From assembly GCA_963777565.1 (NCBI GenBank), contig CAVZQZ010000007.1:55209-119208 (forward strand): 64,000 bases of DNA, read 5' to 3'. Made by a program: the position numbers and the translations under genes. This document shows, piece by piece, positions 47,542 to 49,677 of this stretch. The stretch's first letter is position 1; every line of letters begins with the position of its first letter. Source of the DNA: an uncultured Thermoleophilia bacterium. Its GTDB lineage: Bacteria; Actinomycetota; Thermoleophilia; Miltoncostaeales; Miltoncostaeaceae. The notes beneath the pieces are model-generated. The model was given only the letters and a program-made list of their open reading frames with translations. It was not told where the DNA came from and did no database searches.

Positions 47542-49677
47542 ATGGAGACGGCACCGCAACGACGTCGGACCCGGCGAACCGCGAACGGCCCGAGCCTGGT
47601 CGACCCCGCGCTCTACATCAACCGTGAGCTCTCGTGGCTCGAGTTCAACGCACGGGTGCTCGCGCTCGCCGCCGATCCCGAGCTGCCGCTGTTCGAGCGC
47701 TGCAAGTTCCTGGCGATCTTCTCGAGCAATCTCGACGAGTTCTTCATGGTCCGGGTCGCCGGCCATCAGGACGCGCTCGAGGCGGGGCGCGCGCCGACCA
47801 CGCCGGACCAGCACCGGGCGCGACGAGGTGCTCGACCGCGTCGCGGAGCGCGCGTGCCGAGCTGATGGCCGAGCAGGGCCGCCTGTGGAAGGAGTCGATC
47901 CGCCCCGATCTCGCCGCGAGCCGGCATCGCGATCATGGCGCTCGCCGACCTCGACGCCCGAGCGGCCAAGCGCGTCGAGCTGATCTTCGACCGCGAGGTC
48001 TACCCGGTCCTCACGCCACTGGCCGTCGGACCGGGGCTGCCGTTCCCGTACATCTCCGGCCTGTCGCTCAACCTCGGCGCTGCGCGTACGCGACCCCGTG
48101 TCGGCGAGACGCCGGTTCGCGCGCGTCAAGGTGCCACCGCGGACTCCCGCGATTCATCCCGGTGCCCGGCGGCTTCGTCCCGATCGAGGACATCGTCCGG
48201 GAGCACGTCGAGCGGCTCTTCCCGGGGATGGAGGTCATCGACACCGTGCTCTTCCGCGTCACGCGCGACGCGGACTTCTCGATCTCGGACGAGTCCGACG
48301 ACCTGCTCGGCGCCGTCGAGGCACAGCTTCGCCGCCGACGGTTCGGCCACGTGGTGCGACTCGAGGTGGAGGAGCAGCGCCCCCGAGGCGATCGTTGGCC
48401 CAGCTCCGCGAGGCGCTCGAGGCTGGCACCCCGTGATACGTACCGCGATCTCGGCGATCGCTCGACTTCACCAGCGCTCTGGCAGCTCGCTCGAGCATGG
48501 ACGACGACCGGACCTGCGCGAGCCCGCGTGGGAGCCGCGCACCCGCCCGCGCCTCCGCGCCGAGGACGGCGAGTCGATCGACATGTTCGGCGTCATCCGC
48601 GCAGGGCGACGTGCTCGTGCATCACCCCTACGACGACTTCCAGACCAGCGTCGAGCGGTTCGTGGAGCAGGCCGTCGAGGATCCCGAACGTCCTCGCGAT
48701 CAAGCAGACCGTGTACCGCACGAGCGGCGACTCGCCGATCGTGCCGGCGCTGATGCGCGCCGCGGAGCAGGGCAAGCAGACCGTCTGCCTCGTGGAGCTG
48801 CAGGCCCGGTTCGACGAGGAGCGCAACATCCAGTGGGCGCGGGCTCTCGAGCGGTCCGGCGTGCACGTCGTCTACGGTCTCGTCGGGGCTGCAAGACCCA
48901 CGCCAAGCTCGCCCTGGTGGTTCGCCGCGAGGGCAAGCACGTGCGCCGCTACGTCCACATCGGCACCGGCAACTACAACCCGACCACCGCCCGCCTCTAC
49001 ACCGACCTCGGGCTCTTCACCTGCCGCGAGGACATCGCCGAGGACGTCGCCGACCTGTTCAACCACCTGACCGGTTTCGCGCGCTCGCCCGAGTACCGAA
49101 GAGTGCTCGTCGCGCCCGACTCGACTGCGCGACGGCATCGTCGGCGAGATCGAGCGGTCGCGGACGCGCACGCGCCGGGACGCCCGCGCGCGTCGTCATG
49201 AAGCTGAACTCGATCATCGACGGCGCCATCATCCAGGCGATCTACCGCGGCGTCGCAGGCCGGGGTGCCGGTCGATCTGATCGGTCCGCGGCATCCGCGG
49301 ACTGCGTCCCGGCGTGCCGGGCGTGAGCGACAACGTGCGCGTGATGTCGATCGTCGGGCGCTTCCTCGAGCACGCCCGCGATCTTCGCGTTCACCAGCGG
49401 CGACGAGACCCGCTACTGGATCGGCTCGGCCGACATGATGGCCCGCAACCTCGACAACCGCGTCGAGCTGCTCGCGCCGGTGGAGGATGCCACCGCCCAC
49501 GATGAGCTGGCGGCGATCCTGGAGGCCTGCCTCGGCGACAGCGCGCTCGCCTGGGCGCTCAGCCCGGATGGCGCCTGGAGCCGGGTCGAAGGTCCGCCCG
49601 ACGCGCCGCCGCGCAACAGCCAGGACGAGTTGATGGCCCGCGCCGCGGCCCGCCCTTCCGCCCCTTCCGCCGCGTAG
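47542..49677 (+). pseudogene. ppk: Polyphosphate kinase 1, disrupted by many (~19) single-nucleotide frame changes
   Basis: PPK1 sequence is recoverable only by hopping between ORFs 47542, 47634, 47935, 48098, 48497, 49314 and 49435. Examples: [16 protein letters not shown]...[62 protein letters not shown]...; [18 protein letters not shown]...; [14 protein letters not shown]...[52 protein letters not shown]. Confidence 0.8.

Follow-up and report, generated by a model that had tools for sequence, protein, structure and literature searches.

A sequence resembling polyphosphate kinase 1 (PPK1) lies on the plus strand at positions 47542 to 49677 of the window, and no single open reading frame in the ORF list covers it. 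The window is the whole stretch of DNA that was analysed, 64,000 nucleotides in length (C7:55209-119208 of assembly G000), and positions given without a contig name refer to it. The question raised by this locus is whether ppk1 is broken in the organism or in its assembled sequence. An earlier note on this DNA offered two readings, a badly assembled or low-coverage patch and a decay of ppk1 by indels alone. The first has held up, with about 86 similar patches found in the assembly, where they break essential genes; the second has not. The frame changes in ppk1 are very probably a local artefact of the consensus or of its polishing, and not the result of gene decay. The assembly comprises 3,190,275 bases (3.19 Mb) in 12 contigs, has a GC content of ~70 %, and was estimated at 83.23 % marker completeness and 0.39 % contamination.

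The ppk1 gene and its frame changes

Seven of the eight frame fragments of ppk1, translated by reference, matched PF13089, PF02503, PF17941 and PF13090, in this order, so that all four PPK1 domains (PP_kinase_N, the PP_kinase middle domain, PP_kinase_C_1 and PP_kinase_C) are represented; the remaining fragment, of 31 amino acids, gave no Pfam match. Together with the absence of a spanning ORF this bears out the earlier observation that a PPK1 can be read here only by switching frame. The catalytic histidines of PPK1, as in the E. coli enzyme, sit in the C-terminal domains, and the C1 and C2 fragments of the window gene aligned to the Pfam models. A single uninterrupted frame of ~700 codons is absent from the assembly, which is read as a fault of the assembly and not of the gene. 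The underlying gene is a PPK1 orthologue of the ordinary type; it lies in synteny with the ppk1 of the closest genome, to which it is ~90 % identical at the DNA level, and it differs from this known family only by the frame breaks of the present assembly. The organism most likely possesses an intact, working PPK1.

DNA searches covered 41 genomes, G000 and 40 relatives, and the region was found in 35 of them including G000, among which all 14 relatives of the same genus. The closest genome, G014, showed 88 % identity across the whole 2.4 kb in this search. Its ppk1 (locus L009) is an intact open frame of 727 codons carrying all four PPK1 Pfam domains, each with an E value of 5e-36 or better, and the named relatives of its product are Thermoleophilia or Miltoncostaeaceae MAGs (Actinomycetota). 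Global nucleotide alignment of window positions 47481-49700 with this frame, against which ppk1 as assembled aligns end to end, gave 90.2 % identity (2297 of 2546 aligned positions). The alignment falls into 30 frame segments, thus 29 switches, all located between 47808 and 49380; when the four segments below 5 nt in length are merged, the count drops to 23. The count of about 19 made by eye in the earlier note was therefore of the right order and slightly low, and the alignment to the closest genomes that it proposed as a check has not reduced the number. Sites of frame change are as little as 4-25 nt apart.

The gap list of this alignment has 31 entries: four are one-base deletions, 26 are insertions of a single base, and one is an insertion of 8 bases close to the variable C-terminus. 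Within 47808-49379, 25 one-base insertions and four one-base deletions relative to G014 were counted. A MAFFT alignment of the window ppk1 with eight relatives showed 24 columns that are filled in the window sequence alone, 23 of which lie in the patch (47808-49380) and one at 49672, and two columns that are absent in the window sequence alone; three of the 11 loci (L011, L018 and L019), which yielded no open frame with a PPK1 N-terminus at a cut of 500 amino acids, were left out of this alignment. Three of the additional letters, at 48500-48502, make up a whole codon and may be genuine. The 8-nt and 1-nt insertions at 49650-49672 fall within the non-conserved C-terminus. No in-frame stop was encountered in the 701 codons of the frame-corrected gene, in line with the earlier remark that the only nonsense codons are those created by the shifts; this does not discriminate error from decay, since few stops are expected in a GC-rich gene.

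The events are confined to the interior of the gene. Its 5' part, encoding PP_kinase_N (47542-47807), is without indels, and its 3' part, encoding the end of PP_kinase_C (49381-49677), is free of frame-changing indels as far as the variable tail. Events are thus absent from the initial 266 nt of the gene and from the ~300 nt before that tail. For 24 events distributed uniformly over the gene, the probability of such an interior placement is ~6e-4. The flanking genes are intact, as had been stated: a subtilase (Peptidase_S8) gene upstream (45556-47463, plus strand), recognized by its ORF and its Pfam match, and an unbroken minus-strand ORF without Pfam match downstream (49683-50771), of which 361 codons could be aligned to G014 with no gap codon and gave a dN/dS of 0.235. 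A single-base insertion relative to G014 was seen at 45537, just upstream of the peptidase ORF, and none in 45538-47807.

Collinearity with G014 extends over the whole window, at ~93-95 % identity. Other bins of 2 kb contain 0-3 frame-changing insertions and 0-5 deletions relative to G014, with the exception of 36.6-38.2 kb, where the DNA is non-coding and divergent. The events in ppk1 greatly exceed this local background. The remainder of the window had been described as nearly clean, which holds by these bins but overlooked a second patch, in the lhr helicase gene on the minus strand (63265-64000). This patch has one-base insertions at 63265 and 63949 within the window and continues to ~C7:122700; the next 4.3 kb contain 18 one-base insertions and four deletions. 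Isolated single-base indels relative to G014 also occur in conserved coding DNA, at 9428, 9442, 24612, 27864, 28046, 43231 and 43372. Some of these lie close together in pairs that would restore the frame, in one case two insertions at a distance of 14 nt and in another a deletion and an insertion at a distance of 141 nt. Such indels may either be genuine differences or have arisen as sporadic errors of this assembly.

A profile search of the whole assembly found PF02503 at the ppk1 locus alone, and a search for a second ppk1 in the assembly found none. Matches to PPK2 (PF03976) were obtained at three places, on C9, C10 and C6. At the two-domain PPK2 locus on C10 (C10:37059-38484; L004, L006 and L007) PF03976 was matched in three pieces, and a further frame error may account for the break between 37523 and 37534.

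Recurrence of the pattern in the assembly

All 12 contigs were scanned with a codon-usage HMM, in which a 7-state Viterbi path (non-coding and six frames) was computed from codon log-odds trained on 814 long ORFs of G000 with high GC3. A cluster was defined as five or more frame switches on the same strand, spaced 350 nt or less. The scan returned 86 clusters with a total span of 101,516 nt, ~3 % of the genome. Within clusters, insertion-like (+1) switches numbered 689 against 243 of the -1 type, while isolated switches, mostly at gene borders, went in the reverse direction (263 of +1 and 661 of -1). An identical scan of ~148 kb of orthologous G014 DNA, covering the window and six patch regions, returned no clusters.

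Seven regions with large clusters were retrieved and six of these were aligned to G014, the seventh (L029) being left out. All six showed an excess of one-base insertions over one-base deletions, as in ppk1: 20 against 2 in C6:523.5-528.5k, 99 against 19 in C9:248-257k, 18 against 4 in C7:119.2-123.5k, 261 against 45 in C10:193.5-213.4k, 162 against 37 in C10:291-303.5k and 59 against 8 in C1:78-84.5k. The broken genes, named by the Pfam matches of their intact G014 orthologues, include several with unrelated and essential functions. They comprise GMP synthase (guaA) with an IMPDH-type protein; argininosuccinate lyase (argH) with a class-IV aminotransferase; lhr, of which the G014 orthologue is a Lhr helicase of 1512 amino acids; malic enzyme together with the complex I subunits of 49 kDa, 24-kDa type and 51 kDa, subunit G, chain 6 and antiporter-type chains, corresponding to nuoD/E/F/G/J/L/M-type subunits of a nuo operon; six pur genes (purD, purB, purC, purF-type, purM and purN); and pyruvate phosphate dikinase (PPDK) with glyQ and glyS. 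The glyS gene is found in one place alone in the assembly, where it is split into six frame pieces. Because a free-living cell cannot lose all these essential genes by shredding through insertions only, the pattern is taken as a property of the assembly and not of ppk1.

The extent of the patches is independent of gene borders, as the ppk1 patch lies in the interior of its gene and a patch on C10 crosses a multi-gene stretch of 19 kb. A partial 16S rRNA gene (C9:248000-248785, positions 1-785 of L026) adjoins the large patch on C9 and has almost no indel relative to G014, from which it follows that the patches have sharp borders. Ribosomal RNA was considered as a cause of large HMM clusters and rejected, as a Rfam search found just this partial 16S rRNA, outside the insertion-rich part; no other RNA families were found in the six loci searched (67.8 kb).

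The inserted bases have a distinct signature. In three regions pooled, 482 one-base insertions and 90 one-base deletions were counted, next to 95 longer insertions and 43 longer deletions, which gives an insertion to deletion ratio of ~5:1 with nearly all events of 1 nt. The inserted base was C in 193 cases, G in 187, T in 60 and A in 42, thus G or C in 79 %. It was identical to a neighbouring base in 26 % of the cases where 55 % is expected by chance, which indicates that these are not homopolymer-length errors. The three codon junctions had nearly equal numbers of insertion sites (106, 130 and 133; n = 369), which argues against selection having filtered the insertions. Apart from GC richness, no sequence context was shared by the insertion sites.

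Origin of the frame changes

The draft consensus contains many stretches, 0.5 to ~19 kb long, in which single bases are in excess (roughly 1-1.5 %), few bases are lacking and substitutions are more numerous. These are proposed to be errors, and 47808-49380 to be one such stretch, which lies by chance inside ppk1. The patches may be places at which few or noisy long reads support the consensus, and would then be unpolished, of low coverage or gap-filled. The completeness of 83 % in just 12 contigs would fit with marker genes broken by errors. Single-base indels that split conserved genes into frame fragments, lower the apparent completeness, are absent from relatives and strike essential genes as well are likewise known from long-read (meta)genomes. 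The present case differs in that the errors are concentrated in ~86 patches over ~3 % of the genome and not evenly spread, and in that insertions prevail by ~5:1 and lie mostly outside homopolymers. Gene-fragmenting indels in long-read assemblies are the target of frameshift-correction tools (proovframe, 10.1101/2021.08.23.457338; Kastor, PMC12007338), and in an evaluation of R10.4 data (PMC9262707) such indels are usually ascribed to homopolymer regions. The non-homopolymer pattern departs from this usual description of long-read error, which does not explain its exact technical cause.

Public sequencing runs gave an independent view of the region. A search with 47400-49800 found 19 runs, the best of which contained 0.11 of the sampled words and none of which reached half. 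Logan contigs of the four best runs (X1-X4, from three studies) were aligned to 45000-52000; these contigs are short, have a depth of 2-6 and may in part be derived from more distant organisms, and the statements below concern the 32 pieces listed of more than 1400. At the flanks and gene ends the identity of the listed contigs was 97.5-100 %, with 0-4 differences per 150-250 nt in pieces at, for example, 47080-47569, 49466-49818, 50194-50447 and 51655-51974. Contigs of X1 and X2 on 47315-47569 had three differences each. On 49395-49818, contigs of X1-X4 had 0-10 differences per about 150-200 nt, and four pieces at 49355-49557, immediately beyond the patch where the 3' part is clean, had 9-10 differences per ~150 nt. 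Listed pieces inside the patch were about 88-92 % identical, with 8-29 differences plus gaps. They omit the letters at 48085, 48140, 48682, 48882 and 48891, all of which are insertion sites; most insertion sites of the patch fall outside the cover of the close contigs among those listed. The 23 patch insertions were absent from all eight aligned relatives, and at five sites the inserted letters were absent from independent samples as well. As far as these contigs reach, they fit a patch in which the consensus differs from all natural sequences.

Substitutions are also more frequent in the patch. For the frame-corrected ppk1 a dN of 0.08, a dS of 0.23 and a dN/dS of 0.35 were calculated, against a dN of ~0.02, a dS of ~0.13 and a dN/dS of about 0.1-0.25 for most neighbouring genes. 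Lineage-specific substitutions numbered 139 for the window and 85 for G014, the excess lying within 47800-49400, and inside the patch those of the window lineage were about twice as numerous as those of the G014 lineage. Amino acid identity to the G014 protein was lower in the patch (83 %) than at the gene ends (90 %). Third codon positions accounted for 55 % of the mismatches in the patches of the assembly and for a visibly higher share in most clean genes of the window. Lineage-specific transitions and transversions were in a ratio of 72:67 for the window and 32:53 for G014, a comparison that does not separate error from neutral decay.

Taken alone, the substitution figures fit a pseudogene that has evolved neutrally since the split from G014. 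It might accordingly be supposed that ppk1 is a real, recently inactivated pseudogene, decaying by single-base insertions while its neighbours remain under selection. The raised dN/dS and the doubled substitutions of the window lineage agree with this, and PPK1 could in principle be dispensable in view of the PPK2 genes at three places. Natural bacterial pseudogenes resemble the window gene in that a conserved gene is readable only through frameshifts and in a somewhat raised dN/dS. However, dS is raised as well, which relaxed selection does not account for. Bacterial pseudogenes are reported to show a deletion bias; their natural spectrum is expected to have deletions at least as frequent as insertions, events of varied sizes and nonsense codons. 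The window gene shows the opposite, with ~25 events in 1.6 kb that are all of 1 nt, biased to insertion, outside homopolymers and placed in the gene interior, where the damage ends about 270-300 nt inside both gene ends. The spectrum is not mixed (25 insertions against four deletions and no stops, the lack of stops being weak evidence by itself). Furthermore, the damage is not limited to this gene in an otherwise sound genome: the same damage was seen in all six other regions, in glyQ/glyS, nuo, pur, guaA, argH and lhr genes. A decay of ppk1 by indels alone is not supported by damage that is not specific for ppk1, ignores gene borders and consists of insertions by ~5:1, all of 1 nt, and inactivation of the gene in the organism is considered improbable.

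An artefact of another kind would arise if reads of two co-occurring strains had been collapsed and both alleles kept as adjacent bases. The inserted bases differ from both neighbours in 74 % of the cases and are G or C in 79 %, the patches carry extra substitutions relative to any single relative, and the public runs contain several related variants of the ppk1 region, all of which would agree with this explanation. If the insertions had arisen at natural polymorphic sites, however, few would be expected where codon position 1 meets position 2. Of 369 insertions, 106 (29 %) fall on this junction, as do 67 of the 279 unambiguous ones (24 %), close to the 33 % expected at random. The spread over the junctions is near-uniform and lends little support to a doubling of alleles. 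As a technical cause a collapsed strain mixture appears less likely than stretches of noisy reads, and it is given only a very small chance of being correct.

A further reading takes the inserted bases as real DNA, which the cell would bypass in expression through programmed frameshifting or transcript editing, or which would stem from patch-wise insertional hypermutation. This is held to be highly improbable. Residues are conserved within segments without in-frame stops, and the essential genes that share the pattern would need a bypass if the DNA were real, but the sites have no common context beyond GC richness and lie as close as 4-25 nt, none of the 23 patch insertions occurs in any of the eight relatives, close natural contigs lack those insertions that they cover, and we know of no bacterial system with such a bypass of dense insertions. 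A Thermoleophilia-like soil actinobacterium with ~86 dense +1 patches in housekeeping genes such as glyS, nuo, pur and ppk1 would have to be assumed, which either expressed these genes by way of a bypass or was caught in the course of such hypermutation, and this is very unlikely.

Consequences for the use of the assembly, and a dispersed motif

With a consensus artefact as the preferred reading, the finding is mainly a caution about this assembly and holds no biological novelty. Read literally, the sequence would suggest that an uncultured lineage of actinobacteria had lost PPK1 along with complex I, purine synthesis and glycyl-tRNA synthetase, and any conclusion on polyphosphate metabolism or pseudogene content that relied on it would be in error. 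The patches (~3 % of the genome) probably depress the completeness estimate of 83 % and will fragment gene calls. Re-polishing or frame correction of the assembly is needed before comparative use.

A separate observation concerns a motif of 15 nt, CCCGGGC-N-TTAACAA, of which the window has seven copies at up to two mismatches where 0.07 are expected by chance. The copies are intergenic, at 16018-16121, 37154-37206 and 38124-38176, and are typically laid out as two direct copies 38 nt apart with an inverted copy. Genome-wide, 31 copies at up to one mismatch were found at 13 loci. The motif has the appearance of a small palindromic repeat dispersed over the genome (REP- or MITE-like) or of an operator that is repeated. 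Its sites at 37.15 and 38.17 kb bracket ~1 kb of poorly conserved DNA of lower GC content.
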